Below, piece after piece: positions 39,440 through 64,000 of a DNA stretch of 64,000 bases. The notes beneath the pieces were generated by a model. The model searched no databases, had not been told where the DNA came from, and saw nothing but the letters and a program-made list of their open reading frames with translations. This DNA is from Yuukianura sp. NJ FZ-2021 (taxonomy: Eukaryota): assembly GCA_046563655.1 (NCBI GenBank), contig CM102285.1:2046001-2110000 (forward strand), written 5' to 3'. Both the position numbers and the translations under genes were made by a program. Within the stretch, counting starts at the first letter, position 1; each line of letters starts with the position of its first letter.

Positions 39440-40774
39440 ATGGTTGTGTTAAGAAAATATCTAAAATGTTACCGTATGGTGATAAAATTTGCAAATTTTC
39501 AAGGCATAATCCCCTTCAGGTTCAAACGAAACGAAGACGGCATTATTTTTGACAATTCAAAGTTAGGCAGAACAAAGTGGTGGTTGATCGCAGTTTACCA
39601 ATTTATTAATGCCATGTTTATGACATATCGTTTAGCTGAAGCTATGTACCACAATAGTATTGGTTCAGGTACAATTTCAATGAATATGTTCAACATTGCT
39701 ATGTGGACTACGGCAACATTCTTCAACATAACAACATGGATGTATGCACATCAGATTCAATTTTTCGTCAACGAAATGTTTGCAGTCCACGAAATACTAC
39801 AACGTAAGTAGCAAATTTACCTAATACGACAATATAGCATCAATATAAGTATAAATAGTACGTAATATATATATACTACTAATATATATACTACCATAAT
39901 ATTTTTCAAAATTCAAATGTCGACTAAATTTTGTTTTCGAAATTTTAGATGAAGCTGGAGGTGGTGGCACAGAAGAACCAGTTGGCTCAATAGTGAAATT
40001 AATTTCCGCAATATATTTTACCAGCTTTTCAATGTTTTTCACCGCCATTCGAACGGCAACAAAAAATCCGAAATACTGGGTGTCACTATTACCCGGACTC
40101 CGCGGAATTTCCAAAGCCAAGCTCATTCCATTTGGCTTGTTTGAATCTTACATGTCATACTGCATCTCAAATGTACTTCTTTTCTACGCTCTCACCTACA
40201 TCACTTATGTCAAGGTCACGAGGTCAAGTATCCAGGCACTGATGTAAGTTTCAAAACAAGACATAACAAAAACGGAAAAAATTTAAATTAGAAACTACGA
40301 AACTGTACTGTAACCCTTGTTAGGCTCAAGAAATCTCCGTTTCACTTCTGCAAATTGTACAATATTCTACGCATACTCAACGGTCGATTCAACTACACGT
40401 ACAGGCAATTTGTGTTACCAGGGCACTTTATTGCAATTTACTTGGCCTGTCTTCTCTGTGATGTCAACACAATTCACCTCTACGGTGTAGTCCGCATGCC
40501 GAACTACCTTGCATTTCCCTTGGTTGGAATCGCTGCAAAACTTATTGCGCTGCAAGCGTTTCCGCGATCGTACAAAGTTTGGAAAGAATCCACCTATGCA
40601 GTTGGGTATATCCGGGAAAAATTTGGAGAACAGACGCTTGTAAGCAAAATGCTGGATGTTGCTGCACCGCTCACTGTGCATGTTCGAAGCGTCTTCGTTA
40701 TTCAGCGTCGAACAGTCATGACGTTTTTCGAAATTGTCATTGGACATACGGTAACAGTCCTCCTGAGTTTTTAA
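39440..40774 (+). CDS. Gustatory-receptor-like multi-pass chemoreceptor (~369 aa); exons 39440-39803, 39949-40243, 40324-40774
   Basis: In-frame GT-AG splicing, about 7 hydrophobic segments, GIIPF near the N-terminus, C-terminal FVIQRRTVMTFFEIVIGHTVTVLLSF resembling GR TM7. Confidence 0.7.
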
Positions 40775-41516: not shown

Positions 41517-44500
41517 TTACCTGCGCTTGCGCATACCGTATACAGCTTTTCGTTTTCTGTTGCCCTGAGGGCTGTCGACCTTCCGCGGACCAACTTTTGG
41601 GCTTGATCTTGCGGACCTTCTTGGGGTAGAGGGGCCTGGAGAGGGAGAAGACGAAGACGACTGGCCAGGGCTGGAAACAATTTGTTTCTTACGAGACTTT
41701 TTAGTTGCTGACTGCGGTGGAGTGTTCGTAGATTTTTTCGTCGGTGAGTTTTTGGTTCTTGTTGACCTTGCTTTGACAGGGGAAACCCTTGCTTTCCATG
41801 GGGAGGTGCTTGCGGCTTTTCGTGGTGTTGCTGGTATTTCCTCTAGGATTTCAATCGAAGAAGATCCAGACGATGACGACTCTTCAACGACTTCCCTCCG
41901 GCGTGTCTTCCGTTTCTCAATTGACCTTGACACTTCCTTCTCTTGTGGACTTAGAAGATTTGGTGCACTTCGCTGTAGTTCTTCTGCGGTTATCTTAGGC
42001 AGATCCACCGTGACACGAGGGAGACGTGGCAACTTTGAAACTTTCTGATGATTATCTTCTTCGTCAGAGTCAGTTCTTCGCTTTCGCTTTTTTCCATCAA
42101 CATTTTTCGATTTCGAACTCAGTGGTTTCTCTTTTTCAGAGATCTTTTTGTTAGTCGGAGTTTCTTCTTCTTCCTCTTCTTCACTGGAACTAATGATCCT
42201 CGCCCTCTTTTTTACGGCAGAAGTTTTTGGACTAGCAGTGGTCTTCTTGGTCTTGGAATTCCCATCGCCTGAGCCTGAAGATTCATTCCGGTCTCTATCA
42301 CGAACCCCGCTACCAATTGCCGCATTTCGAGCAATTCTTTGATGTCTCGAAGGAGGAAAGAGCGCACGCTTAACTGGAAGTTTCGTTGAAATATCTTTAG
42401 GATTGCTGTTTTGACTTCCATGAATTTGTGGACTTTCTTTTTGTTTTTGACGAGTATCCTCTTCATTACGAGTGGGAGGATGCTTTCCCGGTCCAGTTCC
42501 GGCTACAATCCTGTTAAGAATCAAGAAATTCATTTGGTTAACCCATTTTTCTACGCTGGTAACGCGAAGGGAAAAATATGAAACTTACGTCGTAAAAGGT
42601 AGGTTTCCATTCATGGAAAAGTAATGTATTTTGTCCTTCCGGTCAAATTCTAGGGCAACATTGTGCAAAGTGACGCGTTTTCCTATATTTGTCTCCGCAA
42701 TAACGTACAGCTCTGAAGCCTGCCGAACCTGCAAACAATCACAATGAATTGAAATTCTGTGGCTAATCGCTTTAACAAAAAACAAAGCCAAATGAAGCGA
42801 AAACAGGAAACTGCCGTGTAGTAGTTACTTACAATGATGTCGATCTGAGCAGCAAGTAGCGGATTGTTACACTCAACGCTTCCTTGCGTCGACACTGGCG
42901 ACTTCGGATCAGTCTGAATAAAGCGTTTCGTCGCGAAGGGCGGCATGGTTCCATCACGCACCCGCAAGTAGAATTCTTTAGCCGATTTCCGAACTAGCTT
43001 CGTCGAAACGATCTATTAAAAAAAACAAAAATAAAATATTTAAAACAGACAGATTTCTTTGCCAAACTTGAGAAATTAAAAATTGTGACTTACAGTGCAA
43101 CGGACTTTGAACAGTATTTTTTCAACTGGGTCCAAATCAAAGAATTGTACTAAACCTTTCTCAGTAAAGTCTGAGTACGAAGTATCATTTGATCCGGTTG
43201 CTTCATCATCCGAAGGTGACTCAGAATCTGCCTCTGCTGCTGCATCTTCATCTCCATGAACTGAAGTCTCCGTTAGCCGTTCAGCCATCAACAGATTTTC
43301 TTCAGCCTGACTGAAGCTTCCAACATTTTGAGATCCCAGCAACTGCGATGATGGTTGTGTTGTACTATTAGATTTTTCCGAACTTCCTGCATTTCCTTCA
43401 GCATTCAACTCAATCTGCGTCAAACTTTGAAAATCTTCAGCTCTAAGCAGCTGAGACGTCGGTGGTGTATTGGAACTGTCAGAACTTCCAGTTGCAGTAC
43501 TTCTTTCAGCGTGCATTAAATCTTCAGCCTGACTCAAGCTTAAGATATCGGAAGTCCTGAGCAACTGAGATGTCTGAGGTGAGTTCGATTTGCGAGAACT
43601 TCTTGGACCTGGACTTTTCCGCGGTTCAGGGTTCAGTCCGTTTTCAATCTGAGTCAGACTTCCAATATCTTGCGTTCCGAGTAACTGAGATGTTTGAAGA
43701 GTGTTGGATTTCTGGGAGCTTCGTTGACTTCGTGCAGCGTTCATCATCTCCTCAGCCTGACTCAAACTTACTATATCTTGTGTTGCGAGTAGCTGCGATG
43801 TTTGTATTTGACTTGATTCGTGTAAATCATCCGACGTTGCTTTATCAGTTGAATTTTTCTTAGACAGTGTAGATGCACACTTCGATTTTTTAGTAGCAGC
43901 CATTGGAGCAGTATTATGTGCACTGCCAGACGCTTCCTGGTTGGACAAGGCGTCAAAGTAAACTGAGATAGGAGATGCTACTGGCTCTGCTGAAACACTT
44001 CTTGTGGAACTGGAGCACGTTCTGCCGGTTTTACTATGAGCAGCATTTGACGTTGTCGAATACGAATTGGCGGCAAAATCAAAATAATTGGGGGCCTCAT
44101 CGTAGTCACCATCATCTTCAAACATTTGTCGCATTTCGCTGTAGATTGGATCATCAGAGATCGAAATCGTCTTAAGTATAATCGTAGAAGGTTGTCTAGT
44201 CGTCTTGGCTGAACCTTGACCTTGTGCAGAAAAAAATGGAGAAGCCGATTCAGATTCTTGCAGGGGTCGATGAGAATCAGAGACTGGAGATTGTTCCGGT
44301 GGTGTTTCGTAGAGAATTGTCGAAGAGGAGCTTGAGTCGGGATCCTTCGTGGGTGTTGAACCAACCGTTCGGCTATCTCCTTCGTCAGTACTCTGACTCA
44401 AGTTGTACAACATTTCATCCATAACGCCAAATACGCTTTCGCTCATTTCAGAAGGCGCTTTTCTGTATCGGTCAGAAGCAGAGGATGCTTGAGCAGAATA

Positions 44501-45890
44501 CTCCGAAACTGTGGTTGCTGTGGGACTGAGTTGCATTTGTCTTGCCTCTCTTTCTGGAGTGTTGGATTGAGGTACTGGATCTGAGTTTCTTTCTTCACTG
44601 TCGCCGAGATCGATAACCTCAATTGCATCCGAGTTTATGGAAATTAAATCGTCTTCATTATTGGCCTCTACATCATCTGTAGTGTCCCCATCCAGATCCA
44701 CAAAAGGCTGTTTCTCCACAGCACTGGAAAACGAGCTTACCGTAGTAGTTGGGACAGACATGCGGAGCGGTCTTTGTCTCGATGGCCTTGTAGCTATATT
44801 CTCGTTGTTCTTTCTCGGGCTCCTTGATTTGGAACTTCTCATCTTCATGTTTTGACTTGGTGAATCTGGTTCAGATTGAACTGTCTCGATTCTCCTTGCC
44901 CGTTGCTCAGGTGAAGACCGACGAGGTTTAGCAGGCGATTGCACTGGTGAAGTGCAAGGCGCACTACTACCTATGACTTTCCACCCAGATTGAGCAGCAG
45001 CCTTTGGGGTTATTTGCTGTACATAAACGACGTCATTATCCACACCCCCTTCGTAGAATACTTCTGAAGCATTGTTTCGAGACATAGTACGGTTATCATC
45101 ACGATCCATCGGGAAAGAAAATACACCCTGAAAAAATAAGAATTTTGTAAGTGGCAATACTAAAGAATAAGTCTGAATTCAATTTTATGAACTCTTTACT
45201 CTGGTCTTACATCTTGGCGGTAATGTATGAGAACCGAGGCTTGAGTTGAATGGGCATCATTGAGTTGTAGTAGTTTGACTTCTTTACCAGACGAAGAAAC
45301 TAGAGTTTCCTTTCCACCCCACATTACCAAGTAGTCTCCAGGTTTGACATTTTGATGGAGAATGTGGGCGAGATCAGAGTTGGTTTCAACAATTATCTTT
45401 GGGATGGTATTAGTCAATCCCATTGTATCCGCACATGGTACTTCGGTAATACGTAGTAGAAGCTGAGCATGCTGAAAATCCATTTTGGTTACCCTCCCAA
45501 TAGTTACCTAGTGGCAGGCAAACAGTACAGTTTAAATGCCTTTCAACTCAAAGTAAAGATTCAGCCTAATCACAAACGTACGAATACCTTTTTAAAGTTG
45601 CGTGAATTCGGATTACGAAAACTGAAGTCACCCCATGCTCCAATCTTGAGCAGGAATAATCGAGCAAGGCCAAGCTGAGAGTATAGATGACACCCCGACT
45701 TCATGTGCTCGTCCAAGGCATCAAAAATGCCTTTACACCAAACTCGAAAAACACACCACTGTCCTCCGTTTCTGTTGCGGAGCGCCAATTCACCTGGCGC
45801 TCGGGTGGTGACATTGAAAAGATGACTGAGTGTTGATACACTGGACAGTGTATCGTCATCTTCTCCGTGATCGTGATCCCCGTTCATCAT
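41517..45890 (-). CDS. Large uncharacterised protein: putative N-terminal OB fold, long Ser-rich disordered region with SQ/TQ repeats, POT1-like OB fold, basic Ser/Lys/Arg tail (about 6 exons)
   Basis: ORFs 45570-45899, 45196-45483, 43076-45157, 42683-42967, 42585-42791 and 41517-42533 are joinable by GT-AG introns; motif FYLRVRDGTMPPF...IDIIV. Confidence 0.7.
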
Positions 45891-47425: not shown

Positions 47426-49768
47426 ATGGAATCAGATACAATTTTGAACGGGAAAAGAAATCTAATGGTTCAGGTAAAAACCCTTGTTGGATTGGGGCTA
47501 GTTGAGACTCTGGACTTTGCAGCAATGTCTTGCTTGGCGCCATTTTTTACGAAAGAGGCAGAACGCAAGGGGTTGAGTATCAGTGTGGCTGGAATCGTTT
47601 TTCTGGCGTCTCCTTTTGTGCAATTCATCGCATCACCGTTTTTGGGATCAGCGGTAATGTTGCGGAAATTTACGTACGGACGTCATTTCACAAAATTCCA
47701 TTTTTTTTTTCTTCCTTTTTTTTTAGATTTCGTATTTCGGTGCTCGAAAAACGTTTTTTCTCGGCGTTCTTCTCCTGGGATTTTCAAATTTCATGTTTGG
47801 ATTTTTAATTCCAATTCAGTCCGGTGCCATCTTTGCGTTTTGTTGCATTTTGTGCAGAGTGGTTGCAGGAATTGCGACAGTCGGAATATATACTAACGTC
47901 GTCTTTTTAGCAGAAACATTTCCTGGTGAAATCAACAAAGCTGTAGTAAAATTTCAAAATCAAAAAAAAAAAAATTTAAATAATTTTTTTGAATTCTAAC
48001 GTTGTTCGTTAATTTAGGGTTTTAATGAAATATTTGCTGGAGTCGGTACATCTGTTGGCCCGGTACTAGGCGGATTTTTGTATGATGTAAGTTTTAGGCA
48101 CAATCCTTGCCAGAGTGTTTTTCGCGCCAAAATTTGCTCTAAATTTGAAATTTCCACCAATTCTGAAATTCGGATATGAAATTACGCTGAAAATTACATG
48201 ATCTTTGTTTGTTTGTTTTTTCAATTTCAGTGGGGTGGATTTCCACTTCCATTTTGGACAATAGCGACTTCCGTGCTGTTCTTACTTCCAATTTGTGCTT
48301 GTTTATTACCAATAGTGGATTCTGATACACAAGAATTGGAAACAACTTCTGCACAGTGGTGGGAAATTATGAAATCTCCAGCAATATTTTTGAATTTGTG
48401 CGTAGGATTTGTTTTTGCTTGTGGATGGACTTTTATGGATCCAACACTAGAGCCTCATTTACGGCGGGTATATTTCAATTTTCACTCATTTTTTACTTAA
48501 TTCTTTTTACTCATTTTCTTTTTAAAAAGTGATTTTTTTTAACAAATAGGTGTACAAAGTGTCGTCGTCCACAACGGGAGGAATATTTTTGATAATGGCC
48601 ATTACATACACTGCATCGAGTGTTCTCGTGGGTGCAATTTCGGATTACGTAAAGCGTAAATGGATCTTTGTTTTGATTGGTTGCTGTGGTGCTGGATTGG
48701 CAATGCTATCTGTGGATCCTTCACTATTTGTTAATGATCATATGTAATACTTTATTGGACAAAAATTTTGGAAAGAGTTAACTTCTTCTGAAGTTTTTTG
48801 ATGCTACATTTCAAAATTTTTTAGGATGCTCTGGACAAAAGTGGTTGAGCTCGGGGCGTTTGGAATGTTCGCTGGCCTTGCCATGGTTCCATTGTATGGA
48901 CTGATGGTAGATGATGCAACGTGAGGTTTTTGAAGTCGCAAAATTTCCACAAACTTTTCTTTGAAATGTGATTTTTGACATAATTTTTTGAGTAAGTGCT
49001 AGGGGTTTTCCTCAGGACCAGGTCACATACGGTACGGTTGCTGGATTTTGGAATTCGGGTTATGCCATTGGGTAAATAACGTTTAAGCATTTACTTTTTT
49101 ATTTGTTTAGGCAAAGCTCAACTTTTTCGTTCAAATAGGCGGTTCCATTTAATTGTTCCGAATGAATTTCTCCGAACTGTATTGCTCTAAGGCATTGGCA
49201 CAGAAATCAATTTTTCCGAAAGTCAGATTGTCCCGAAAATAGTATTGAGCAATATGAGCAAATTGCCTCTCGGAGGAATTTACCTTTCGAAGGAAAAGGT
49301 TTCGCGGAAATTTAGTCGGAGAAATGGCGTTCTATCCAAATAGACACCTGATTTTAATGTACATTTTAGAGAAGTCGTTGGGCCGAGCTTTGGATCTATT
49401 GTTATGCAACATATTGGATTCAGCGCAGCTTCTACAATTATTTCAGGGTCACTCTTCCTATCCGTGAGTCTCGTTTTTATAGTCAATTTTTTTTTTCAAA
49501 AAAATCTTCGAAATGTTATTAATAGCTTAAGATTATTTTGGGATTTAAGTTAGTAACGTCAAACTTTCTTTTGTTCGTTTAGGCTAGCCTGTTCTGCATT
49601 TATTTTACATCTTCAGATCTGCAGAAAAGAACAAGATACGTGGCAATAGAATCGACCAATGATGAACCACCCAACATCCACCAAAATTTTACCGCAAGAT
49701 CGAAATCACCTTTGAGTGCAATTTTACATCACCCTGTACACTCACCTGGAAACATGCTCCAGAAGTAA
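47426..49768 (+). CDS. MFS transporter, SLC18B1-like, copy 1, multi-exon
   Basis: SCLAPFFTKEA, GPVLGGFLYD, WGGFPLPFW, FMDPTLEPHLR, EVVGPSFGS. Confidence 0.88.
49131..49340. mobile_element. Possible small foldback element in an intron of MFS copy 1
   Basis: tccgaa-type subrepeats on the left and tcgga/tcgcgga on the right; CAAATAG at both ends; intron longer than in paralogs. Confidence 0.35.
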
Positions 49769-50778
49769 CGGCATGTTCAAATGTCAATATGGAAATTAAG
49801 CGTTACCACAACCGCCGTTTTTCAAGTCCTACTTTTTCTGTTACGTTAGTCTAAAGTTTTTATTAAAATACGTTTGGAGCACTTTACAATTATTCTAGTT
49901 GAATGAGTTTTACAATACTGGTGTTTTGTATTAATTTGTGTTAATGCAATTTCATTGCCAAAGTTTGCATAAATCCAAGGCTGATAAACAAAGAAATACT
50001 TTTCTTTGACAGGTTAACTCAAGCAACTTAAGCTGGTTTTTCTAATTTGGAAACAAATTGGTTCCATTTTTTGGAGGATTTTTTTAATGATCGAGTCATT
50101 GCCTAACCTGTTAAAGGAAAACTCGTTGTCAAGACACCTTGGATAAATCTCTTGCTTAAAAAAAAGAAACTTCGGAACTTTTTAAGCGATATGTACTAAC
50201 TAAGTTTTCAATATTCACTCGGCAAGTAAATTATTTTGAAAGACAGTAAATTAGTATTATTGCCTGCGACAAACTCGTTTTTCATGGATTAAATTATAAA
50301 CCTGCGTAAGTGTTTTTCAAGATTAGCTGAGACATGAATTTTTTCAAATCGAGTTTTTCGCCAGTCTAATGACAAAGCCTTGAAAGTACTTTAATAAAAC
50401 GCTCCAGCATGAAAAACTGGTTTTCCAAAAACCAGTTTCAATTTTCCACGAGGTGGTGGAAGCTATATTACCGGCGGCAAACAAAAACAGCATTTGAACT
50501 GAATCTTCACACACCAAAGGACAAGGCCCAGCAACCGCACGACCGCTGGAGAAAGTTCAACTGCATAAAAATATTACTACAGTATTAAGGTAAAACACAA
50601 AAACAAATTTTTCAATAAATTATATTTAGCTATTCCTATGTTTAACGTGTTTTTATATATTTCAGATACAGTTTTTATTTTTTTTTTCTTATTTTATGTT
50701 TCACGTTTTTTTAAATATTTAAAATGTTCTTTTAGGAAACAATTTCCGCCATTTTCAACTCACTACAAACCAGTCATC

Positions 50779-53193
50779 ATGGAAGCAAAATCAACCGATC
50801 ACGCACTTTTTTCAAAGTCTACAGCCGAAAGCACTTGGCCACTTCCACGTTTCTACACTGAGTCATGGACTTTACCTCCTCCACTATTAGAAAACTCTAA
50901 TACGCATACTCGGTCCACCGACGCAGACAAATCTACGTGGTTAATTTTCACGCCGCGCACGACTCGAATTCTAGCTGAAACCGTTGGACAATGGCTCAAA
51001 AAAGAAATTGCAGCGGAAGTTGTAATGGTTGCAGCAGAAGCAAAAGCTAACTTCACATTGGTGGCAAGTGATGTGACCCTTGACCCTCAGGATTTGACCC
51101 ACCATGAACTTCTAGCAAAGGAGTTCCCTTCAAACGCAGGGGTCATTAGCCTATGGGGCGTTTGCGACGATGGAGACAATGTTGTGGGCTGTTTGCAAAA
51201 TAAGGACACGGGGAATCTGATCGGTGGATTTTTGAATACACTCAAATTCGTTTCTTCGTTCACAAAAACCAAGAAATTTATGGCTGTGACGAAGGGGTCC
51301 CATTGGGATGCAGGGGGACCCTTGGCCTCTAATTTCACCGCAGCTCTTCTCCAAGGGACACTTAAAGCCTTTGTCTCAGAATACCCTAATATAGACGTCA
51401 TTGGAGTAGACTTGGATCCAATTGAAACCTTGGACATTACTGCACTTGCGCAGCAAATAGTTTCTCAGCTTGGTTACGCCGGCGTAGAGCGGCAAATAGC
51501 GATTCGTCGAGGAGTGTCTTCATGCCCACGTTTAGTTCCGTTGGACGTGTCGTTCCCGCCACCGGAATTCAAAACTCCTTCGTTCCCATTTGCACTCAAG
51601 CCAGTTGGAGCTGGGAATCAAAAGTTGTACAAACCGGTACGGCTGATGCCAGTCGATTCGAACAAAACCGTTATCAAAGTTCACTCTATTTCACCAAATT
51701 TCTTAGAAGTTGCAATCCATCGTGAAACTCTCGGGCCGGAAACAGGTACATGCGGTTCTGATTTTGCCGGGATCATTGAAAAAACCGGAGTCGAATGTCG
51801 GTTTGCTCAGGGTGACCGTGTTTGCGGAGCGTTCCATCGATATGGCCTCATTGGAAACTATGTAACGTTGGATAACGCAGGATTTGTTTACAAGATTCCT
51901 TCTTGGATGAGCTACGACGAAGCTTCAACGCTGGGTATTCCACTTGGTACGGCCTACTTTGGTGTTTTTGTGGCGGGAAAACTAAAACAAGGTGACCATA
52001 TTTTGATTCACACTGCATCGGGCGGTTTCGGTCTCGCTGTCATGCAAATTGCAAAGCACGTTGGAGCTACTGTGTACGCTACTGCTGGAAGTGAAAAAAA
52101 GCGAAACTATTTGCGTGAAGTAGTTGGCGTCAAATATGTTTACAACTCACGTGACACAAATTTTGAGCGGGAAATTCTGGACCTGACTGGAGGTGAAGGG
52201 ATTGATCTCGTTGTGAATACAATTACATCAGAAGGCTTCAAAGAAGCCAGTTTGAACCTTGTAAGAAGAAATAGTGGCGGGAGATTTTTAGAAATGGGCA
52301 AAATTAATACTTGGACACACGAGGAAGTGCACAGGATAAGACCGGATGTGGAGTACAAAATCTACGATTTATATGCTGACCGCTACGCAGATACAACTCC
52401 GATTGAGCAATTGCTGCACTCTGGAGCTATTCGTGGAATGCCGTACAAACACAAGCCGATTGACCAATTGGCGTCAACTTTAAATGAATTTCGTGACAGC
52501 AAGCATATTGGCAAATTTGTGCTGCAAATGAGCCAAAAAGTGAGACTATTTCATGCTGAGAGTTCATACTTGGTCAGTGGAGCTCTAGACGACTTGGGAT
52601 TGGCTGTTGCTGGGTGGCTGCTGGAACAAGGAGCGGGAAAAATAATTTTGAACTCCCGGAGTGAGCCAAGCGATTCCGAAATTTTGAAAAAATTAGAGCA
52701 GTTTGGTGATTTGGTGGTCGTGATTTCAGCAGAAATCGATGAAAAGGAAGATGCTAAGCGTCTTTTTCAAAAAATTAAGAAGGAACTTCCTCCGCTCAAA
52801 GGCGTTTTCCATTTGGTGGGAATTTCTAAAAATCAACCCATCTCAGAATTGTGTTTGGACAATTTTGAGGAAACGTTGCATAGGAACGTAGACGGTACTT
52901 GGAATTTGCACAAAGAAAGTCTGACCTTTGACCTCGACCATTTTGTACTCATCAGCACCACAGCAAGGAACGCAGATTTTGCTGGCCAAGCAGACAACAG
53001 TGCGATTGCAAGTTTTCTGAATACTTTTGTCAAGTATCGTCAGCATCACTTAGGCCTTCCCGCAACTGGGATGAACTTTGAATCTGCCGCTGCGAAAAAT
53101 AGTCTCGACTCTGCCAGCTTATGCTGTAAAATGCATACACTTGAAAGAGTCATGCGCCTTGGTCGGAATCAAGCAGTAATCAGGGAAGGCTAA
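50779..53193 (+). CDS. Stand-alone type I PKS fragment (KR-structural/ER/KR), intronless CDS, copy 1
   Basis: ER motifs GSDFAG, LIHTASGGFGLA, YATAGS, GGRFLEMGK, HIGKFVL; KR-like LPPLKGVFHLVG, GTWNLH, LDHFVL; no KS, AT or ACP. Start placed at ATG 50779 after a likely 5'UTR intron. Confidence 0.88.
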   Translation: MEAKSTDHALFSKSTAESTWPLPRFYTESWTLPPPLLENSNTHTRSTDADKSTWLIFTPRTTRILAETVGQWLKKEIAAEVVMVAAEAKANFTLVASDVTLDPQDLTHHELLAKEFPSNAGVISLWGVCDDGDNVVGCLQNKDTGNLIGGFLNTLKFVSSFTKTKKFMAVTKGSHWDAGGPLASNFTAALLQGTLKAFVSEYPNIDVIGVDLDPIETLDITALAQQIVSQLGYAGVERQIAIRRGVSSCPRLVPLDVSFPPPEFKTPSFPFALKPVGAGNQKLYKPVRLMPVDSNKTVIKVHSISPNFLEVAIHRETLGPETGTCGSDFAGIIEKTGVECRFAQGDRVCGAFHRYGLIGNYVTLDNAGFVYKIPSWMSYDEASTLGIPLGTAYFGVFVAGKLKQGDHILIHTASGGFGLAVMQIAKHVGATVYATAGSEKKRNYLREVVGVKYVYNSRDTNFEREILDLTGGEGIDLVVNTITSEGFKEASLNLVRRNSGGRFLEMGKINTWTHEEVHRIRPDVEYKIYDLYADRYADTTPIEQLLHSGAIRGMPYKHKPIDQLASTLNEFRDSKHIGKFVLQMSQKVRLFHAESSYLVSGALDDLGLAVAGWLLEQGAGKIILNSRSEPSDSEILKKLEQFGDLVVVISAEIDEKEDAKRLFQKIKKELPPLKGVFHLVGISKNQPISELCLDNFEETLHRNVDGTWNLHKESLTFDLDHFVLISTTARNADFAGQADNSAIASFLNTFVKYRQHHLGLPATGMNFESAAAKNSLDSASLCCKMHTLERVMRLGRNQAVIREG

Positions 53194-53937
53194 CCTTATC
53201 TTTAGTGAGCATCTCAAAGATATGATCATATTTTACAGCAGTTCAGAAACAATAAACCAAAACAATGAATGATTTTGATGAAAAAAAATTGAAATTATGC
53301 AAAATTAATTTTTAACACAGTGGAAGGCACAGCAAAGTTTTCCAAACCTCCATGAAATTTACTATTTGCATCTTAACGACTTAATAATAGACTGTTTTAA
53401 AAAATCAAGTATTCAAGGTTTTTCAAATTCCTGCATCACTCGTTAAGACAAAAAAAATTAATTTGTCACAAGAAGTCTGACATTGCGTAGGTTGGTTGTA
53501 TTGCTTTTGAAGCAATGGCAATTATTTCGAAAGTTTCTATTTTTTTTAATGATTTCATGTTAATGCACGTTTTTTTTTAGCAAATATAGTCATCTGCTTC
53601 ATGAGACAAATTTCTACGAGACTCAATTAAATTACGAGGTCACACACTGCAGTTCCTGCATTTTTCCGGTTTTTTGATTGTGTTTTCAGATGGTAATACG
53701 ACTCTAGGCAAAGTAACCGCGAATTTGCCGTAATATTACAGGTTTGCTGAGGTAACAAAATTTAATCATCAATGTCTCTCTGAATTCCTCTGCCATGAAA
53801 AGGTGAAACCCAAAAAAAAATTGACAATCTTCGGTTAGGTGTGAAGCAAAGCTGCGTTGAGTAAGTCGCAGGCAAACGGAAAGAATTTATTAGTTGGCTA
53901 GATTTTGAAAAATAGTTCAATCTGACTTTGCAGAAGA

Positions 53938-56215
53938 ATGGAAACGGAGACAATTCATCGCCAAAAAGAAAACTTGATTTTGCAGGTGAAAACAATTGCA
54001 GGATTAGGGATGGTTGAGCTTTGTTACTTCGCGGCATTGTCTTGTTTGGCGCCATTTTTTACCAAAGAGGCAAAATTGAAAGGTGTGAACATCACCGTCT
54101 CTGGAATTGTTTTCATCGCATCTCCTTTGTTTTTGGTCATCACTTCTTGCTTTCTTGGCACAGCGGTAAGTAAACAATGGAAAATTATCGTTCCTTTGTG
54201 AGAATTTGTAATTTTTTCTTAATTCTTAGATTTTGTGGTTTGGTGCCCGGAGAGTATTTTTTGGAGGAATGCTGATCGTGGGATGTTCAAACATTTGTTT
54301 TGGATTTTTAAATCGAATTGAATCTACTACAGTGTTTGTCGTTTTGTGCATTTTATGCAGAGCAATTGCAGGATTTGGTTCTGTGGCAATTTGTGTCAAA
54401 GTCATTTTTCTTATGAAAGCGTTCCCTGATGATATTAACAAGGCTGTGGTAAAATCACATACTGTAAAAAAAAAACATTATTCTAATTTAGTTTAATTTC
54501 CGAGAAAAAATAATTCAGGGGTTGAGTGAAGCTGTTGCCGGGGCTGGACTTTCTTTGGGTCCAACAATCGGTGGAATTTTGTACGACGTAAGTTTAACAG
54601 CGTCAAAAAACGAAACTGCTTTCCTCATTTTCGAAAAAAAGAACCTTGGATATTTCACTACTCGTTCAGTTTTTTTTATCTTTTTAGTGGGGTGGATTTC
54701 CACTTCCGTTTTGGACCGTCGGAACTGTTGTCTTGTGCCTCATTCCAATCGGCGCTTATTTATTGCCACAAGTTGACTCTGAGTCGGACCAATCGAAACC
54801 AATTTCTGCTTCTGCGCATTGGCAGGAAATTATAAAATCTCCGACGATGTTTCTGAATATTTGGGTAGCATTTATTCTTGCCTGTGCGTGGACTTTTTTA
54901 GATCCAACTCTCGAGCCGCATCTTCGTCACGTAAATTATTTGACTTGGATTTTCCGGTATTATGCAAAATTAAATTGAAATGGAAATTCTATAATGTTGT
55001 TTCGACAGGAATTTGGAATAACGTCGTCTACAACAGGAGGAATATTTTTGATTATGGCCTTCTCCTACAGCCTGTCATGCATATTTCTCGGTTCGATTTC
55101 GCATCACGTAACACGAATGTGGATTTTTGTGTTTGCTGGTTTGTTGGGGTCAGGTTTGGCACTTTTGTCTGTGGATCCTTCCCTATTTGTCTATGACTAC
55201 AGGTAACTTTACCACACAAAAATTACCTAAATAGCAAAATTCGTGCTCAGCGAGCTAATTCGTGAATTTGAGTAAAGAATAATGGCGTCCATATTCCAGC
55301 TAACCAAGCTTTACCCGAAATTGTTGTAAATCATACACAAATTAGTTTGGATTTGTAGGCATCTTTGGACAAAATGCGTTGGGCTTGGGCTGTTCGGAGT
55401 ACTAGAAGGTTTTGCTTTTGTTCCACTTTATAGCCTGATGGTAGACGACTCAATGTGAGCTTTTCTTTTGAATATCCCGCCAAACTTTGCGTCAAAAGTG
55501 GTTGTTTTTTTTATTTTTAACAGCACGAGGGGCTTTCCTCAAAACAAAGTCACTTTTGGAACTCTGTCTGGATTTAGATATTCTGGCTACTCTTTAGGGT
55601 AACCATGCAAACAAATATTTTTTACTGAAATATGTACATGTATAAACGATAACTTGAATAAGCTTAAACTTGTGTTAAATATTAAATTTTGGTTTTTGTT
55701 TTAGAGAAGTCGTTGGACCCAGTCTTGGATCCGCTGTGATGCAGCACTTTGGGTTTCATACAGTTTGCACAATTATTGCAGCGACACTTTTCGTAACAGT
55801 AAGTTCTAGTAATGTTGTTTTCGTAACAGTAAGTTCTAGTAATGTTGTACAGTGTAGTTCAAATAGGATTGGACACAAACAAACTCAGAGTTTTTTTGAT
55901 TTTCATAATTGTGGGGAGTTATGCTGAGTCAAAAGTTGAAAGAAATCGATACAATGTTGATGCTTTGTACATAAGTTTCTCATTTTTGCATTCCCATCCA
56001 GACGAAATTACAAATTTTGACAAAAAATACCATGGAAACGGTTTTAGCATGTCTACTTTTCCGTGGACAACATGTATTTGATATATGTAAAAGTAGTATA
56101 TTCGTACATTTATTTTTTTAAACAGGGAGTCCTAGTTTGCTGTTACTTTACCTATGCGGAAGCAAGAAAAAGCAAAGACTACGCCTACCTAGAATCAACC
56201 AATATAGAACGTTAA
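53938..56215 (+). CDS. MFS transporter, SLC18B1-like, copy 2
   Basis: Same exon structure and motifs as copy 1. Confidence 0.88.
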
Positions 56216-57191
56216 GTAGCTAATTCCTTTGAAATAATTTTTAAAATATTTTAGTAACAACCCAAGTTAAAACCAAGTTAAAACCAAGTTACAACCATAT
56301 CTTATAAAAGTACGGAAATAAAGAAATAAAACGACAAAACATTAATCTATCTTTAAGTTTCATCCAAGTGTTTATAAATTAATGTTCAGATTTTGTGTAC
56401 TTTTCAAAATAAATAATTATTGACATCAAAAAAACTAAACATTCTTTAAAAAAGTTTCCTCGTTTACTTTTTAAACGATACGCTCCTTTTTTATGATTCA
56501 CTAAAAGCGAAATAATTCTGAAAAACATTAAAGTATTGTTGCCTGCGGCAGACTGGTTTTTTTTTCTACTTCAAAACTTGTTTAAAGCGACTGATTTAAA
56601 GCGTATTGTCTGCAGATAGGCCGACACATGAATTTTTCAAGTCCAGGTTTCCGTTTACTGCCTTAATGACCCAGCCTTGTAACTACTCTACAACGTTTCA
56701 GTTTAAAAAACTTGTTTTCAAAAACCTGTTCGAATTTTCCAAGTGGCGGTAGATGCTATTTTAGCGGCGAAACCTACTTCACTTCAAATTTCAGCTTTTT
56801 CAGCAAATCAGACCGCCTAACAACCACTTTCGCTGGTGAGTGGAGAAGCTCACCTGCATCAAAAACACCACAACACTAAAAGTAAAACACTAATAAAACG
56901 AATTTTACCTTAAACTATAGTTACCTTTTAACATTTTTTTCACATTGCCCACGTTAACTATGAATTGCTTCTAATTTAGAAGCAATTCTCCTTGAGAAGT
57001 TCTAAAGGGGAATTGCTTCTAAAAATTGGTGTGTCTAATGTGTTAAAGAATGGGGTTTTTTAAAAGTAATTTTTAGAAACTTCTCAGTTATAAGCAGTTC
57101 ATTTCAAACATCAGCAGGGAACTTTTTTAAGTCGTTAAAATTTTTTTTCATGAAACAGTTACCTTTACTGCCAGTTGGAAACGAAATAATC

Positions 57192-59597
57192 ATGATCGGA
57201 GCAAAATTCAACGCTGACACGTCTTCTTCAAAGTTTGCACCAGAAAGCACTACGCCGCCCCCAGGTATCTACACTGAGTCATGGATTTCATGTGTTCCAC
57301 TTACAGAAAAATTCGCTCATGCCGGTGCAGAAAGATCTACGTGGTTAATTTTCACGCCGCGCACAACTCGAATTCTAGCTGAAGCCGTTGGACAATGCCT
57401 CAAAAAAGAAATTGCCGTGGACGTTGTATCGGTTGTCGCAGAAGCAAAAGCTAACTTCATGTTAACTGCAAGTAATGTGACCCTTGACCCCCATGATTTG
57501 GCCCACCATCAACTTCTAGCCAAGGAATTCCCGACAATCGCAGGGGTCATAAGCCTATGGGGCCTTTGCCACAATGGAGACAATGTGGCGGGCTATTTCG
57601 AAAATGAAGCCACGAGGAATCTGGTTGGTGGATTTTTGAATACACTCAAATTTGTTACTTCCTTCACAAAAACCAAGAAATTTATGACTGTGACGAAGGG
57701 GGCCCTTTGGGGTGCAGGGGGGCCCTTGGCCTCTAATTTCACCGCAGCACTACTCCAAGGGACACTGAAAACGTTTGTAAAAGAATACCCCAATATAGAT
57801 GTCATTGGAGTAGACTTAGACCCGACTGAAACCTTGGACATTACTACGCTTGCGCAGCAAATAGTTTCTCAGCTTGGTTACGCCGGCAAAGAGCGGCAAA
57901 TTGCAATTCATCAAGGCCAGTCTTCATGCCCACGTTTAGTTCCGTTGGACGTGTCGTTCCCGCCACCGGAATTCAAAACTCCTTCGTTTCCATTTGCACT
58001 CAAGCCAGTTGGAGCTGGGAATCAAAAGTTGTACAAACCGGTACGGCTGATGCCGGTCGATCCGAACGAAACCGTTATCAAGGTTCATTCCATTTCACCC
58101 AACTTTTTGCAAGTTGCCATCCACCGTGAACTTCTCTCCCCGGAAACTGCAACTTCTGGTTGCGATTTTGCCGGAGTTATTGAAAAAGTTGGACCGGGAA
58201 GCCGGTTTGCTCAAGGTGACCGTGTTTGTGGAGCGTTCAATCGATTCCGGTTCATTGAAAATTATGTTACACTGAACAATGGAGTCTACATGTACCGGAT
58301 TCCTGATTGGATGAGCTACGACGAAGCTTCAACGCTCGGTATTCCACTTGGTACGGCCTACTTTGGTGTTTTTGTGGCGGGAAAACTGAAACAAGGTGAC
58401 CATATTTTGATTCACACTGCATCGGGGGGTTTCGGTCTCGCTGTGATTCAAATTGCAAAGCACGTTGGAGCTACTGTGTACGCCACTGCTGGAAGTGAAA
58501 AAAAGCGAAACTATTTGCGTGAAGTAGTTGGCGTCAAATATGTTTACAACTCGCGTGACACAAATTTTGAGCGGGAAATTTTGGAAGTGACTGGAGGTGA
58601 AGGGATTGACCTCGTTGTGAACACAATTACATCAGAAGGCTTCAAAGAAGCCAGTTTGAACCTTGTAAGAAGAAATAGTGGCGGCAGATTTTTAGAAATG
58701 AGCAAAATCAATACTTGGACCGTAGAGGAAGTACAAAGTCTCAGACCGGATGTGGAATACGCAATTTACGATTTACATGCTGACCGATTTGTAGATACAA
58801 GTCCAATTGAGGAGTTAGTAGCCGCTGGATTTGTTCGTGGAATGCCTTATCGGGTCAAGCCTATTGACCAATTGGCGGCAACTTTGAATGAATTCGGGGC
58901 CAGCAAGCATATTGGCAAATTTGTGCTGCAAATGAGCCCAAAAGTGAGACTGTTTCACGCTGAGAGTTCATACTTGGTCAGTAGAGCTCTAAATGACTTT
59001 GGATTGGCTGTTGCTGGGTGGCTGCTGGAACAAGGAGCGGGAAAAGTAATTTTGAGCTCCCACAGTGAGCCAAGCGATTCCGAAATTTTGAAAAAATTAG
59101 AGCAGTTTGGTGATTCTGTGGTCGTGATTTCAGCAGAAATCGGTGAAAAGGAAGATGCGAAGCGTCTTTTTCAAAAAATTAAGAACGAACTTCCGCCACT
59201 CAAAGGCGTTTTCCATTTGGTGGGAATTTCTAAAAATCAACCTATTTCTGAATTGTGTTTGGACAATTTTGAAGAAACGTTGCAGAGGAACGTAGCAACA
59301 ACTTGGAATTTACACAAAGAAACTTTGACCTCTGACCTTGACCACTTTGTACTCATCAGCTCCGCAGCAAGTAATGCAGATTTTGCCGACCAAGCAGCCA
59401 CCAGAGCCATTGCGAGTTTTCTGGATACTTTTGCCAAGTATCGTCAGCATCATCTAGGCCTTCCTGCAACTGTGGTGAGCTATGGATCTGCGACTGCACA
59501 AAATAGTCTCGACTCTGCCAGCCCATCATGGAAAATAAATGCCCTTGAAAGAGTCCTGCGCCTTGGTCTGAATCAGGCAATAGTTATGGAAGAGTAA
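57192..59597 (+). CDS. Stand-alone type I PKS fragment (KR-structural/ER/KR), intronless CDS, copy 2
   Basis: Close paralog of 50779-53193; start chosen by alignment (the ORF is open from 57150). Confidence 0.88.
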   Translation: MIGAKFNADTSSSKFAPESTTPPPGIYTESWISCVPLTEKFAHAGAERSTWLIFTPRTTRILAEAVGQCLKKEIAVDVVSVVAEAKANFMLTASNVTLDPHDLAHHQLLAKEFPTIAGVISLWGLCHNGDNVAGYFENEATRNLVGGFLNTLKFVTSFTKTKKFMTVTKGALWGAGGPLASNFTAALLQGTLKTFVKEYPNIDVIGVDLDPTETLDITTLAQQIVSQLGYAGKERQIAIHQGQSSCPRLVPLDVSFPPPEFKTPSFPFALKPVGAGNQKLYKPVRLMPVDPNETVIKVHSISPNFLQVAIHRELLSPETATSGCDFAGVIEKVGPGSRFAQGDRVCGAFNRFRFIENYVTLNNGVYMYRIPDWMSYDEASTLGIPLGTAYFGVFVAGKLKQGDHILIHTASGGFGLAVIQIAKHVGATVYATAGSEKKRNYLREVVGVKYVYNSRDTNFEREILEVTGGEGIDLVVNTITSEGFKEASLNLVRRNSGGRFLEMSKINTWTVEEVQSLRPDVEYAIYDLHADRFVDTSPIEELVAAGFVRGMPYRVKPIDQLAATLNEFGASKHIGKFVLQMSPKVRLFHAESSYLVSRALNDFGLAVAGWLLEQGAGKVILSSHSEPSDSEILKKLEQFGDSVVVISAEIGEKEDAKRLFQKIKNELPPLKGVFHLVGISKNQPISELCLDNFEETLQRNVATTWNLHKETLTSDLDHFVLISSAASNADFADQAATRAIASFLDTFAKYRQHHLGLPATVVSYGSATAQNSLDSASPSWKINALERVLRLGLNQAIVMEE

Positions 59598-60156
59598 AGT
59601 TATATATTCGTGGACTTTTAACTTGCCAAAGTTACGAACATATTTTAATGAAGTAAGAAAACAGGAAAACGAAACAATAATAAACTGGTTTCCAAAAACC
59701 AACGCTTCATGGTTTTTCAAACTCCAATACCACTTATTATAAACATAAGAACTTTAATGATAAACCAGAAAAGTCTTTTATAGTGTAGGTTGATTTGAAT
59801 ACTTTTGAATCAATCGGTATTGAATCCAAGCAATTGTTGAAGGATTTGAACAAAACCACAACATCATAAGTCATCGTGATACATGTATGCGGTCTGAAGT
59901 TCTACGTAAACTGTGTATACAATTACCTAAGTGAGATTTTAGGTAGAGTTGACGCAAGCGTTTTTATAAAAAAAAATTGTTAAAGAAAAAAAAAAGAAAC
60001 TGGTTTCCGTTTTCATTATTCAAAAACTGGTTTCTTGTAGCATATAGACTTGAGCCGTCAAAACCTTAAATTGAAGCTAAAACTCGAAAAAATAACTTTA
60101 GTACTTACCTTTGTGACTAATGCTTGGAATTTATATTTCTTTAGTTTAGATGAAGA

Positions 60157-62208
60157 ATGGAGTCTGTACCAATAACAAACAGAAGAGGAAAACTGAGTGT
60201 CCAAGTGAAAACGGTAATCGGAGTGGGGCTAGTTGAGATTCTATATTTTGTTTCCCACTCTTCGCTGGCGCCATTTTTTATAAAAGAGGCAGAATTCAAA
60301 AATGTGAATATCAGCGTCGCTGGAATTGTCTTCTTTGCTTCTCCTCTACTTCTAGTCATCACATCTCCATTTTTAGGCATAGCAGTAAGTCAGTCGCAAA
60401 TTATACTGCGCATGTGCAGAAAAGAACTAAACGCGGATAACTTAATTCCATTTTTCATTAGGTTTCGTGGATTGGTACACGGAAAATATTTTTCATGGGA
60501 ATGCTGCTACTTGGATTTTCGAACATTTGTTTTGGATTTTTGAATCGAATTGAATCTGGCGGCGCTTTTGTATTTTGGTGCTTTTTGTGTAGAGCAATTG
60601 CAGGAATTGGTACGACAGCGACGGCAATCAAGGTTATTTTTCTTGCCAGAGCTTTCCCTAATGAAATCAACAAAGCTATGGTAAAATTCAAAATTTTTAA
60701 AAAAGGATTTGGATATTTTTCACAAATTTTAAACTTTTCATAATTTATTGATGAATCATTTCAATTCCGATTTTTTTTAATTCAAGGGTTTGAGTGAAGT
60801 TTTCCCGGGGGTAGGAGTTTGTCTAGGGCCGGCAATAGGCGGCATCCTGTATGACGTAAGTTTTTAGCTCCAAAACTTCAATTTTCTTGATGAAACTTTT
60901 TTAACCAACGTAAAATTTGGAAATCTTGAACATTTGAACTCGTTTTTTATTCATCGTTAGTGGGGAGGATTTGGACTTCCGTTTTGGACAATCGGAACGA
61001 TTGTGTTGTGCCTCATTCCAATCAGTAATTGTTTACTGCCAGAAGTGGATTCAAACGCAAACGAGCTGAAAGATACTTTTGCATCTGCAAATTGGTGGGA
61101 AATTATGAACTCTCCAGGAATATTTTTGAATTTGTGGGTAGCCTCTATGTTTGGTTGTGCCTGGACATTTTTGGATCCAATATTAGAACCACACTTACGA
61201 CAGGTAAGTTTGAATTCTATTGGTTTTCGCGCCATTTTTGTAAAAAAAAATTGTATTTTCATAAAATTTGTGTTTGTTTTCTGTGATAGGGAGTTGGAGT
61301 GTCCTCATCTACCATTGGTGGAATATTTTTTGCAATGGCAATTTCATATACCGTGTCCAGTGTCCTTGTAGGTGCAATATCAGATCACGTAAAACAGACA
61401 TGGATCGTCATAGGTGTTGGATGTTATGGCTCCGGACTCGCAATTGTATCTGTCGACCCCACACTATTTGTGAATGATCACACGTAATTGCAAAAAAAAG
61501 AGAGCATTTTTTGGCAATTTATGTTGAAATTGTTTTCAAATCTGTCACAATATTTTTTGTGTAGGCAGCTTTGGGCAAAGGTGATTGGACTTGGGGTGTA
61601 TGGAATGTTCATAGCCGTTGCTCTTGTTCCGGTTTATGGAAACATGGTGAACGATGTAGCGTAAGGTTTACAAAATTTTGAAAGTCCCTCAAATTTTCTG
61701 TAACAAACAATGTTCATTTTGAATTTTGATCAGCGCCAGAGGTATTGTTCTAGACAATGTTACTTACGGAACGCTCTCAGGATTTTGGCTTTCTAGTTAC
61801 GCTATTGGGTAAACACGTATGCTCTATAATAAACACTTAATATAACGAAGTAGGTATGTCTGCATCTCAACTTAACTCAACTGTAGTTTAGTTTGTGTAA
61901 CTGCTAAATACAATATATTTGTACCGCTTATTTAAATAATATTTTAATATTGGCGAATACTTTTTTCTTTTTTTCTTAGAGAAATAGTTGGTCCAAGTTT
62001 TGGCTCGGTTGTGATGGAGCATTTTGGATTTGATGCAGCTTGTACAATTATGGCAGCATCGCTTTTCGTTTTAGTAGGTATCCTAACCTTAATTGTAATT
62101 AAACTAAATTAAAAACTAAATTTTCGTTATTTTTAACAGGGAACTATACTCTGCTGCTATTCTGTAACATCCGACGTAATGAAAAAGAAGGGATACATAT
62201 TTTACTAG
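60157..62208 (+). CDS. MFS transporter, SLC18B1-like, copy 3
   Basis: Same exon structure; FLDPILEPHLR; shorter C-terminal tail. Confidence 0.86.
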
Positions 62209-62246
62209 GATCAATGGGTGAAAGAAGGCAAGGTTTGTTGACTTTG

Positions 62247-62467
62247 ATTTTCTTTAACATGTTGGGTAGTACCTCACGTTTGTTTTTGACTTAGCAAAAA
62301 AAAAAGTTGTTTTCATTTCAATCGTAAACATAACAATATAGCCGAATTTATTAAATTTTGAATACGAATTGGTAGCAACTTTTCAGACAGGTACTAAAAT
62401 TGATACCAATTTTTTTTTTTCGTTTTTTTGTCAACAAGGGAGGTAGTACCCAACCTGTTAAAGAAAA
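62247..62467. repeat. Small inverted-repeat element downstream of MFS copy 3 (related sequence at ~50000-50120)
   Basis: TCTTTAACATGTTGGGTAGTACCTC vs GAGGTAGTACCCAACCTGTTAAAGA (25 bp, 2 mismatches). Confidence 0.5.
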
Positions 62468-63563
62468 TTAACTTTTCGTTGTCAAGGAACCTTGATAAAA
62501 CGGTAGAAAACTTTCTGAGGGGTTGAAAGAAAATGATTTCGAGTGAAATTATTTGGGTGAAAGCCACTTTTTCTTTCTCGGTTTTTGCATTCGTTTATAC
62601 AAAACCCACCAATATTTGTGTTCAAGGCGACACAAGGTTTCTAGCTGCTTTTGTGTCTTTCAACCGCCCCTCTCCTGGCACCATTTTACACAAAAGAGGC
62701 AGTATTTAAAAATGGGAATTTCAGTGTCGCTGAAACAGTTTTCTTTGCATCTTCTCTACTTCTACTCTAGTGAGAGAGTAGAATGTGAGAGCTGACTTTA
62801 ACATCAACAACTAGGTTAAAAAAAAGGAACTGTTAAAGTTCATCAAAATGAGAATTGTGATGGCGGTTTTTTTGTGGCGTCACCTCTGAGATAGCAGAAA
62901 GGCGAAAGAATTAACAAGAAGTAAGCTTGCAGACTAACGTAATATACGTGTGGCAGGACTTTGCCGAAGTGAGAGATAGCGGTTAGCCACATATTTGGCG
63001 TATTAACACCTAATAAGAATACATAAACTCTAAAGGATGAAGATTGAGAACATCTTTCCTAGTCAAAGTGTAAAACTAGACAACCAAAAATTAGATAAAA
63101 GTATTTCTCTAAGAAAGTGTTGGTAAATATGAAACGCCATTGATAATTTTCACGTCACGTTCACTATCACTACCTCTCAATTTGCCAAAAGTTAAAACTT
63201 TTGATGCTAGTAACAATCTTGTTTCAAAGTTTAGATATTTGTTACAAAACTGTGATACAAACAACCCCGGCCAAAAATTCAAGGTAAACTGTTAAAAATT
63301 AAGTAAAGATTTTATGTAAATCTAAAGAACGCATTGTTAACATAAGGAAAAATTGTAAAAAAAAAAACTAAGGCAAATAATAAAAAAAAACTTATCTCCG
63401 TTGGTATTTTTCAAAATTTTCGTTTCTTGTAGAATTAAGGCTAGACATTTGAAAACATAAATTTGCTGTTAAAACTCGATAAAGAGTTAGTACACAACAA
63501 TTTGTGACATCGGTTCACATGTGTCATAATTTTTGAATTTTCAGCTGTTTATTCAGATGAAGA

Positions 63564-64000
63564 ATGGAGTCTCTTACTATGTCTCCGTCAATTACAAACG
63601 GAAGAGGAAAACTGAGTGTTCAAGTCAAGACGATTGTTGGTCTGGGGCTAGTTGAGACTCTGTATTTCGCTGCCCTCTCTTGCCTGGCACCATTTTTCAC
63701 AAAAGAGGCAGAATTTAAAAATGTGAATATCAGCGTCGCTGGAATTGTCTTCTTTGCGTCTCCCCTATTTCTAGTCATCACATCTCCATTTCTGGGCAAA
63801 GCAGTAAGGCAGTCACTAAATATGCTACTAATGTGCAGACAAAAAAAAACTAAACGCGGAAAACTAAATTCTATTTTTTGTTAGGTTGCGTGGGTTGGTA
63901 CACGGAAAATATTTTTCATGGGAATGCTGCTACATGGATTTTCCAACATTTGTTTTGGATTTTTGAATCGAATTGATTCTGGTGGCGCTTTTGTGTGTTG
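63564..64000 (+). CDS. MFS transporter, SLC18B1-like, copy 4 (5' part only)
   Basis: LSVQVKTIVGLGLVETLYFAALSCLAPFFTKEA; exon 2 begins near 63884. Confidence 0.85.

Follow-up and report, generated by a model that had tools for sequence, protein, structure and literature searches.

Truncated polyketide synthase genes, probably encoding stand-alone enoyl reductases, within a tandem array of SLC18B1-like transporter genes in Yuukianura

Polyketide synthase (PKS) genes are known from springtail genomes: the genome report for Folsomia candida lists 36 antiSMASH clusters, of which 30 are type I PKS clusters, and regards most of the genes concerned as products of horizontal gene transfer (HGT; PMC5490193). 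Reducing steps of polyketide assembly are in some systems carried out by a separate protein, as by LovC, the trans-acting enoyl reductase (ER) of lovastatin biosynthesis (PMC7870829). For human SLC18B1 (hVPAT), the structure paper describes Y51, R137, D140, E171, D255, D296 and W384 as highly conserved and functional (PMC12049414). Surveys of animal PKS and fatty acid synthase (FAS) genes, as one such study sets out its approach, begin from the ketosynthase (KS) domain (PMC10764717), and KS-less derivatives such as those described below therefore escape them. We found no paper that links SLC18B1 with a polyketide synthase or with Collembola. Here, we analyze a stretch of 64,000 nucleotides from Yuukianura sp. 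NJ FZ-2021 (assembly GCA_046563655.1, contig CM102285.1, positions 2,046,001 to 2,110,000 of the forward strand), hereafter the window, in which two intronless PKS-derived genes, ER1 and ER2, stand between intron-bearing genes of the major facilitator superfamily (MFS), named MFS-A to MFS-D. The most likely reading, which we hold to be fairly probable when taken as a whole, is a lineage-specific tandem array of SLC18B1-like genes with short introns (at least four genes and one fragment) in which two stand-alone enoyl reductases are embedded, both truncated derivatives of an intronless, bacterial-type reducing PKS.

The ER1 open reading frame (ORF) occupies 50638-53193 on the + strand, with a conserved Met at 50779, and the ER2 ORF 57150-59597 on the same strand, with the conserved Met at 57192. 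Both are uninterrupted, encode about 800 aa and are 79-80% identical (79% over 817 residues). On each, Pfam places ADH_N, ADH_zinc_N and KR in this order after some 300 residues of a structural ketoreductase (KR) subdomain (psiKR), so that the ER sits between the structural and the catalytic KR subdomains, as in the psiKR-ER-KR modifying region of a reducing synthase. An AlphaFold2 (AF2) model of ER1 (pLDDT 81.5, pTM 0.80) has the modifying region of a MAS-like PKS (5bp4) as its best Foldseek match (E 1.9e-52), and compares with the SpnB KR-ER didomain 3slk at a TM of 0.53/0.56. With phmmer against the PDB, bacterial-type PKSs are matched at 1.2e-56, animal FAS at 2e-41 and mollusc FAS-like PKSs at 3e-27 and 5e-24; judged by sequence, the ER proteins are nearer to bacterial-type PKSs than to animal FAS or mollusc FAS-like PKSs. 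A preliminary description of this DNA had seen intronless PKS fragments of about 800 aa here, and the Pfam, tblastn, PDB and Foldseek matches all agree with it.

The truncation is sharp. When the 2,129-aa synthase P0020, the closest relative found, is compared with the window by tblastn, only its residues 1174-1988 match (E 0.0; 1174-1986 for ER1), the six remaining matches having E values of at least 3.0 and lengths of 14-78 residues. No remnant of a KS, acyltransferase (AT), dehydratase (DH) or acyl carrier protein (ACP) domain was found in the 64-kb window, either in this search or by Pfam, which finds ADH and KR families only. Because nothing outside residues 1174-1988 matches, the genes represent clean excerpts that start in the DH/psiKR linker and stop where the KR ends. 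Neither holds the KS, AT and ACP that a type I PKS requires.

The two reductase domains have fared very differently. P0020, ER1 and ER2 were aligned with the processing regions of 191 PKSs retrieved in the searches, and we scored the columns that are at least 85% conserved in the 191 references and also kept by P0020. Of 38 such columns in the KR domain, 16 are lost in ER1 and 17 in ER2 (13 in both), whereas among 47 in the ER domain each copy has lost 4, the same 4 in both. The catalytic Lys of the KR (99% conserved) is Asn in both copies, the catalytic Tyr is replaced by Asn in ER1 and by Thr in ER2, the catalytic Asn is Ala in both, and the Gly-rich nucleotide motif is broken in both copies with three positions lost; pairwise alignments to 5bp4 and 3slk agree on these losses. 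At the 95% level, each copy lacks 10 of 20 KR columns while P0020 lacks none, and the Pfam KR score is 124-128 bits in ER1 and ER2 versus 179-242 bits in the eight relatives scanned. The residues of an active PKS ketoreductase (Lys, Ser, Tyr and Asn, with the Gly-rich motif) are thus incomplete, and from these replacements the KR is predicted to be catalytically dead in both copies. Since most of its losses are common to the two, the KR died before the gene duplication. The ER keeps its GGxG nucleotide motif and 43 of 47 columns at the 85% level. At the 95% level 24 of 26 columns remain, with the NF-x-D Asp lost and one Ala changed to Val. By motif and columns, the ER has what is expected of an active PKS enoyl reductase of the medium-chain dehydrogenase/reductase (MDR) type. 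Only the ER looks active. Of the 'KR/ER reductases' of the preliminary description, the ER part therefore holds and the KR part does not.

Substitution patterns between the copies point the same way. The ratio of nonsynonymous to synonymous divergence (omega) is 0.38 overall, 0.23 in the ER, 0.42 in the KR and 0.62 in the psiKR (Fisher tests for omega <1: 1e-15, 9e-15, 7e-4 and 0.011, respectively), and the first 100 codons are neutral at an omega of 1.0. Unique changes number 33 versus 26 in the two copies (p 0.44), which indicates equal rates. The simplest reading of these patterns would be an ER enzyme for which the KR halves are a necessary structural frame.

Relatives were sought in a scan of 1.84 billion representative proteins. 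P0020 is the sole close relative, with 48-52% identity over 94% of the protein; the rest lie at 28-36%, save one partial match at 42%. It is a KS-AT-DH-ER-KR-ACP synthase encoded on a metagenome contig (L001) by one uninterrupted ORF of 6.4 kb. As this full-length relative is also intronless, the intronless state of the ER genes was inherited, and for the same reason it says nothing for or against a retrogene origin, which we had considered and dropped. The GC content of the contig (35-41% in non-coding and about 48-53% in coding DNA) looks eukaryotic. A FastTree phylogeny of the processing region unites P0020 with ER1 and ER2 at support 100, and this clade joins PKSs of F. candida and Orchesella dallaii in an 8-row clade with support 99. 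A 9-row clade with support 97 includes the window copies and the springtail PKSs, and PKSs from Gammaproteobacteria metagenome-assembled genomes (MAGs) join only in the next larger, 16-row set, at a fork with support 68.

On the + strand the order of genes is MFS-A, ER1, MFS-B, ER2, MFS-C, an exon-1 fragment and MFS-D. The co-oriented alternation given in the preliminary description is confirmed, and the fragment (62674-62767) is an addition to it. We built the MFS gene models from conserved paralogue blocks together with GT-AG sites and phases common to the copies. MFS-A (47426-49768, + strand) has nine exons (47426-47653, 47727-47945, 48018-48086, 48231-48467, 48550-48743, 48825-48920, 48997-49071, 49370-49463 and 49583-49768) and encodes 465 aa. 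MFS-B (53938-56215, + strand) likewise has nine (53938-54165, 54230-54448, 54519-54587, 54688-54930, 55009-55202, 55359-55454, 55524-55598, 55705-55798 and 56126-56215) and encodes 435 aa, as does MFS-C (60157-62208, + strand; 60157-60384, 60462-60680, 60787-60855, 60961-61203, 61290-61483, 61565-61660, 61734-61808, 61980-62073 and 62140-62208), with 428 aa. MFS-D (63564-64000, + strand; exon 1 63564-63803, exon 2 from 63885) leaves the window at its right end. The fragment, 94 bp on the + strand and found by self-blastn, is an incomplete copy of the C/D type: its identity to exon 1 is 82.8% for MFS-C and 85.1% for MFS-D. In MFS-A, B and C all eight introns of each gene are GT-AG, with identical positions and phases and lengths of 64-327 bp, and the frame is open; the first intron of MFS-D has the same splice sites as in the other copies. 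Intron 7 of MFS-A is spliced out in a contig of sequencing run X3: its match stops at the exon-7 donor (49071), and the next 15 letters are those that open exon 8 (49370). The same contig (48911-49071) still has the modelled intron 6, which suggests intron retention, a molecule unspliced or partly processed at this point, or a junction that is unused there; the junction was kept in the model, as the three paralogues agree in GT-AG sites, phase and reading frame.

Pfam gives weak but collinear matches to MFS_1 and MFS_1_like on single MFS exons. For a closer assignment, profiles of exons 1, 2, 4 and 5 (64-81 residues) were compared with all PDB sequences. Human SLC18B1 (9d7u) is matched at E values of 5.6e-4, 4.3e-8, 2.5e-4 and 1.2e-3, respectively, as the sole PDB match for three of the profiles and the top match for exon 2, and the matches run collinearly along the chain (239-297, 301-370, 399-465 and 477-525). 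Because 9d7u tops all four profiles in collinear order, the label 'SLC18B1-like' is right, as had been proposed, and among solved transporters the closest kinship is with SLC18B1 (VPAT). A homologue search with a single MFS exon gave no match, and exon 2 of MFS-B retrieved only generic clusters of MFS and sugar transporters in an atlas search. The seven residues named for hVPAT are incompletely kept. R137 and D255 are retained in MFS-A, B and C; D140 is Ala in all three; Y51 is Met, Leu, His and Leu in MFS-A, B, C and D, respectively; and D296 is retained in MFS-A and C and is His in MFS-B. The position of E171 is placed by spacing only, and for W384 the exon-7 profile (24 residues) matched only designed PPR repeats and antibody chains in the PDB. 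With these replacements the MFS copies are probably not orthodox polyamine transporters. MFS-A, B and C are 58-61% identical and under purifying selection (omega 0.22-0.27; 0.26-0.27 for MFS-B against MFS-A and MFS-C). MFS-C and MFS-D have 83% amino-acid identity over 114 codons, and 59897-60156, 5' of MFS-C, is homologous to 63275-63563, 5' of MFS-D, by self-blastn.

Upstream non-coding homology between the two enzyme genes had been noted near 50258 and 56537, and it stands: by self-blastn, identity is 80% between 50228-50282 and 56510-56561 and 68% between 50320-50634 and 56614-56929, with a local alignment score of 149 versus a maximum of 27 in 200 shuffles. The conclusion drawn from it, that enzyme and transporter were duplicated as a unit, is not supported. 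As delimited by self-blastn and shuffles, the duplicon is 3.3 kb long (50228-53516 matching 56510-59814, both + strand) and comprises the ER gene and its own flanks (for ER1, about 550 bp on the 5' side and about 320 bp on the 3' side), with the transporters excluded. The two copies are 85% identical over 2570 bp of DNA, and their flanks are 68-80% identical, in step with synonymous divergence, before homology ends. No shuffle of 200 reaches the observed score for the flanks within the duplicon, whereas the spacers beyond it toward the MFS genes are unlike (24/200 and 19/200 shuffles reach the score). The ages differ accordingly: synonymous divergence (dS) is 0.293 for ER1/ER2 versus 1.16 for MFS-A/B, 1.06 for MFS-B/C and 1.21 for MFS-A/C. 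As the duplicon excludes the transporters, the spacers are unlike and the dS values lie so far apart, the transporters were not copied with the ER. No ER remnant was found between MFS-C and MFS-D and no ER-flank homology 5' of MFS-D (61/200 and 38/200 shuffles reach the score). The stretch 5' of MFS-A aligns with that 5' of MFS-B at a score of 31, which 1/200 shuffles reaches and which is a weak hint at best. We also discarded unequal crossing-over among the MFS paralogues, which would make MFS-B a recent A/C chimera, since MFS-B is at a dS above 1 from both.

Other pairs in the window share the age of the ER copies: dS is 0.291 for MFS-C/D (114 codons) and 0.277 for both ADH1/2 and ADH2/3. 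The latter belong to four tandem zinc-type alcohol dehydrogenase (ADH) genes, each of which has a large exon encoding about 330 aa, on the - strand at 1-11134, about 40 kb from the ER genes; their neighbouring pairs have an omega of about 0.3 and a depth equal to that of ER1/ER2 and MFS-C/D. Because all these pairs lie at a dS of 0.28-0.29, the data point to a general burst of short local duplications across several unrelated families, with the ER copy as one product. Co-duplication of unrelated neighbours, which the preliminary description offered as the alternative to its unit, thus fits better. The history would then be as follows. Before the duplication, the KR would have lost catalysis and cofactor binding and been kept as a scaffold, with the MDR-type ER remaining intact; the ER gene, together with about 0.9 kb of adjoining DNA, would subsequently have been copied once (dS about 0.29) into the next intergenic spacer, within the local burst that also duplicated MFS-C/D and the ADH genes 40 kb off. 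The most likely function of ER1 and ER2 is NADPH-dependent enoyl reduction as stand-alone enzymes. Their substrate would be either a free enoyl or enone or, in trans, an intermediate carried on the ACP of a PKS or FAS whose gene lies elsewhere.

Several points weigh against this account. The springtail PKSs are distant, at tree path lengths of 2.4-2.7, which keeps the origin tentative. In the ER, the NF-x-D Asp, which is 98% conserved and also present in P0020, is replaced by Glu in ER1 and by Gln in ER2. The strict alternation of ER and MFS genes in one orientation is the pattern expected from a unit duplication, and only 83 bp separate the end of the ER2 duplicon from the block common to MFS-C and MFS-D. 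It is possible that an old unit duplication was followed by gene conversion over the whole ER duplicon. On one such reading the locus would be a true animal metabolic cluster, in which the reductase modifies a small molecule and the adjacent SLC18B1-like transporter sequesters or exports it. The P0020 gene likewise has an MFS gene 1.9 kb downstream on the same strand, the loss of D140 in MFS-A, B and C and of Y51 in MFS-A to D, residues that the hVPAT paper lists as conserved (PMC12049414), fits a change of substrate, and the window also carries ADH, P450 and DUF4246 genes. However, conversion has to account for a dS of 0.29 beside neighbouring MFS pairs above 1, for a divergence that is fairly even along the ER genes (proportion of synonymous differences, pS, 0.11-0.44 in 100-codon windows) with no near-identical tract, for flanks that diverge like synonymous sites up to the point at which homology stops, and for ADH pairs 40 kb off at equal dS. 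The linkage itself is not conserved in the one relative in which synteny was checked: the MFS gene beside P0020 (8325-10270 of its contig, intron-bearing and 3' of the full-length PKS) has the proton-coupled folate transporter as its best PDB match (E 0.006), and it shows no tblastx match to the MFS genes of the window. With no KS, AT or ACP in the 64 kb, neither the core synthase nor the conserved linkage of a functional biosynthetic gene cluster is found within the window and this relative.

We therefore regard such a cluster as unlikely, and a functional enzyme-transporter module of any history as unlikely to a similar or slightly greater degree. Still somewhat more doubtful is a broader scenario in which the processing core of a PKS of HGT origin turned into a trans-acting ER on a dead KR scaffold and was recruited into an SLC18B1-derived array with altered proton-coupling or substrate residues, as a metazoan module that would reduce a defensive or signalling polyketide or lipid before vesicle loading or export.

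The activity of the ER may also be questioned. The ORFs could be non-catalytic: a PKS duplicated in part may have left relics in slow decay, or the products may be subunits with no enzymatic role that, for example, pair with a full-length PKS via the ER or KR surface. A dead KR, neutral first 100 codons, a relaxed psiKR and the replaced NF-x-D Asp would all suit decay, and a binding role would be compatible with open frames, selection and conserved columns. Against this, both ORFs of about 2.4 kb have stayed open over a dS of 0.29, constraint is strongest in the ER and extends to the dead KR, the GGxG motif is retained with 43 of 47 conserved ER columns, and the copies evolve at equal rates. 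We consider a non-catalytic role rather improbable, and stand-alone enoyl reduction remains the preferred reading.

That the PKS-like ORFs are bacterial or symbiont DNA misassembled onto host DNA is very improbable: they are intronless, their best PDB matches are bacterial PKSs at 1.2e-56 and, beyond the 9-row clade, the next tree rows include Gammaproteobacteria MAG PKSs, but each ORF has intron-bearing MFS genes on both sides, at distances of about 1 kb and about 0.75 kb, its GC content at third codon positions (GC3; 0.41-0.42) matches that of neighbouring genes (MFS 0.36-0.39, ADH 0.43) in a window of 31-44% GC, contigs of runs X1 and X2 bridge the spacers (49706-50360, 55819-56379 and 56712-57209), and the copies, flanks included, diverged in place.

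The four run entries listed for 50000-59999 come from a single study and are all presumed to be DNA. Run X3 is labelled only 'DNA?', and the spliced contig makes it behave like cDNA. Its contigs also lie on ER2 (58770-59518, at least 95% likeness), MFS-A and MFS-C, and they are a weak hint of transcription; they give no ranking of expression, and stretches not covered by X3 are uninformative. An element resembling a miniature inverted-repeat transposable element (MITE) lies at 62229-62494, just past the MFS-C stop, with 32-nt terminal inverted repeats at 62244-62275 and 62440-62471 that are 91% complementary. Its summed contig depth is about 26,000 versus tens to hundreds elsewhere, many loose contig ends occur at both edges, and contig joints suggest MITE-related pieces near 47974, 49176-49486 and 50007-50115.

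Elsewhere in the window, two paralogous P450 exons (21562-22077 and 25028-25483, + strand) are 63% identical at a dS of 0.92, one of them with a Pfam p450 match at 9.4e-7. An uninterrupted ORF of 631 aa on the - strand (27110-29005) carries a full DUF4246 domain (E 5e-108) and may be another transferred gene; the DUF4246 family is mainly fungal. The P450 and DUF4246 genes, the tandem ADH genes, the SLC18B1-type genes, the short introns and a GC content of 31-44% agree with a soil arthropod of springtail kind. Neither of two further features has a Pfam match: a Ser/Thr/Gln-rich ORF of 693 aa with an internal repeat motif of about 30 residues (43076-45157, - strand), and three consecutive hydrophobic ORF pieces that resemble exons of a multi-pass membrane protein (39425-40774, + strand).

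The locus is a caution for the calling of animal biosynthetic clusters, given that its gene order suggests duplication of an enzyme-transporter unit and its divergence says otherwise. Compared with human SLC18B1, the transporters share R137 and D255 and have it as their top or only PDB match; they differ in the changes at D140, Y51 and D296 and in their occurrence as at least four tandem copies. The enzymes have the same domain order and fold as the modifying region of MAS-like and fully reducing type I PKSs (5bp4, 3slk and 8g7w). They differ from these synthases and from P0020 in forming a gene of their own that lacks KS, AT, DH and ACP, and in the loss of KR catalysis and of the Gly-rich motif. 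The springtail PKSs of F. candida and O. dallaii are the nearest named relatives and are likewise bacterial-type PKS genes within an animal genome, but they are themselves full-length (KS-AT-DH-ER-KR-ACP, with or without MT and R) and about 31% identical to the window copies. Closest in build is P0281, a stand-alone ER-KR protein of 848 aa on a 96-kb contig, which resembles the window copies in size and domain content and also has no ACP; it is about 34% identical to them, and its own KR is intact (242 bits) in contrast to the degenerate KR of the window (124-128 bits). Stand-alone ER-KR proteins and springtail PKSs are thus known already, and what appears to be new, as far as the sequences tell, is a KS-less, KR-dead, ER-only derivative kept in two copies within an animal-type genome. 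If active, ER1 and ER2 would illustrate how a transferred megasynthase is dismantled into single-function enzymes. The working model for such an enzyme is LovC, an MDR-type ER on a chain of its own that works in trans for a PKS. No chain of that name is among the 22 PDB sequences matched by the ER proteins at E <=1e-20. LovC is an ER alone and is not known to have a psiKR/KR scaffold. Active ER1 and ER2 would correspond in an animal to the trans-acting enoyl reductases of fungi, with a different build in which a dead KR scaffold holds the ER.

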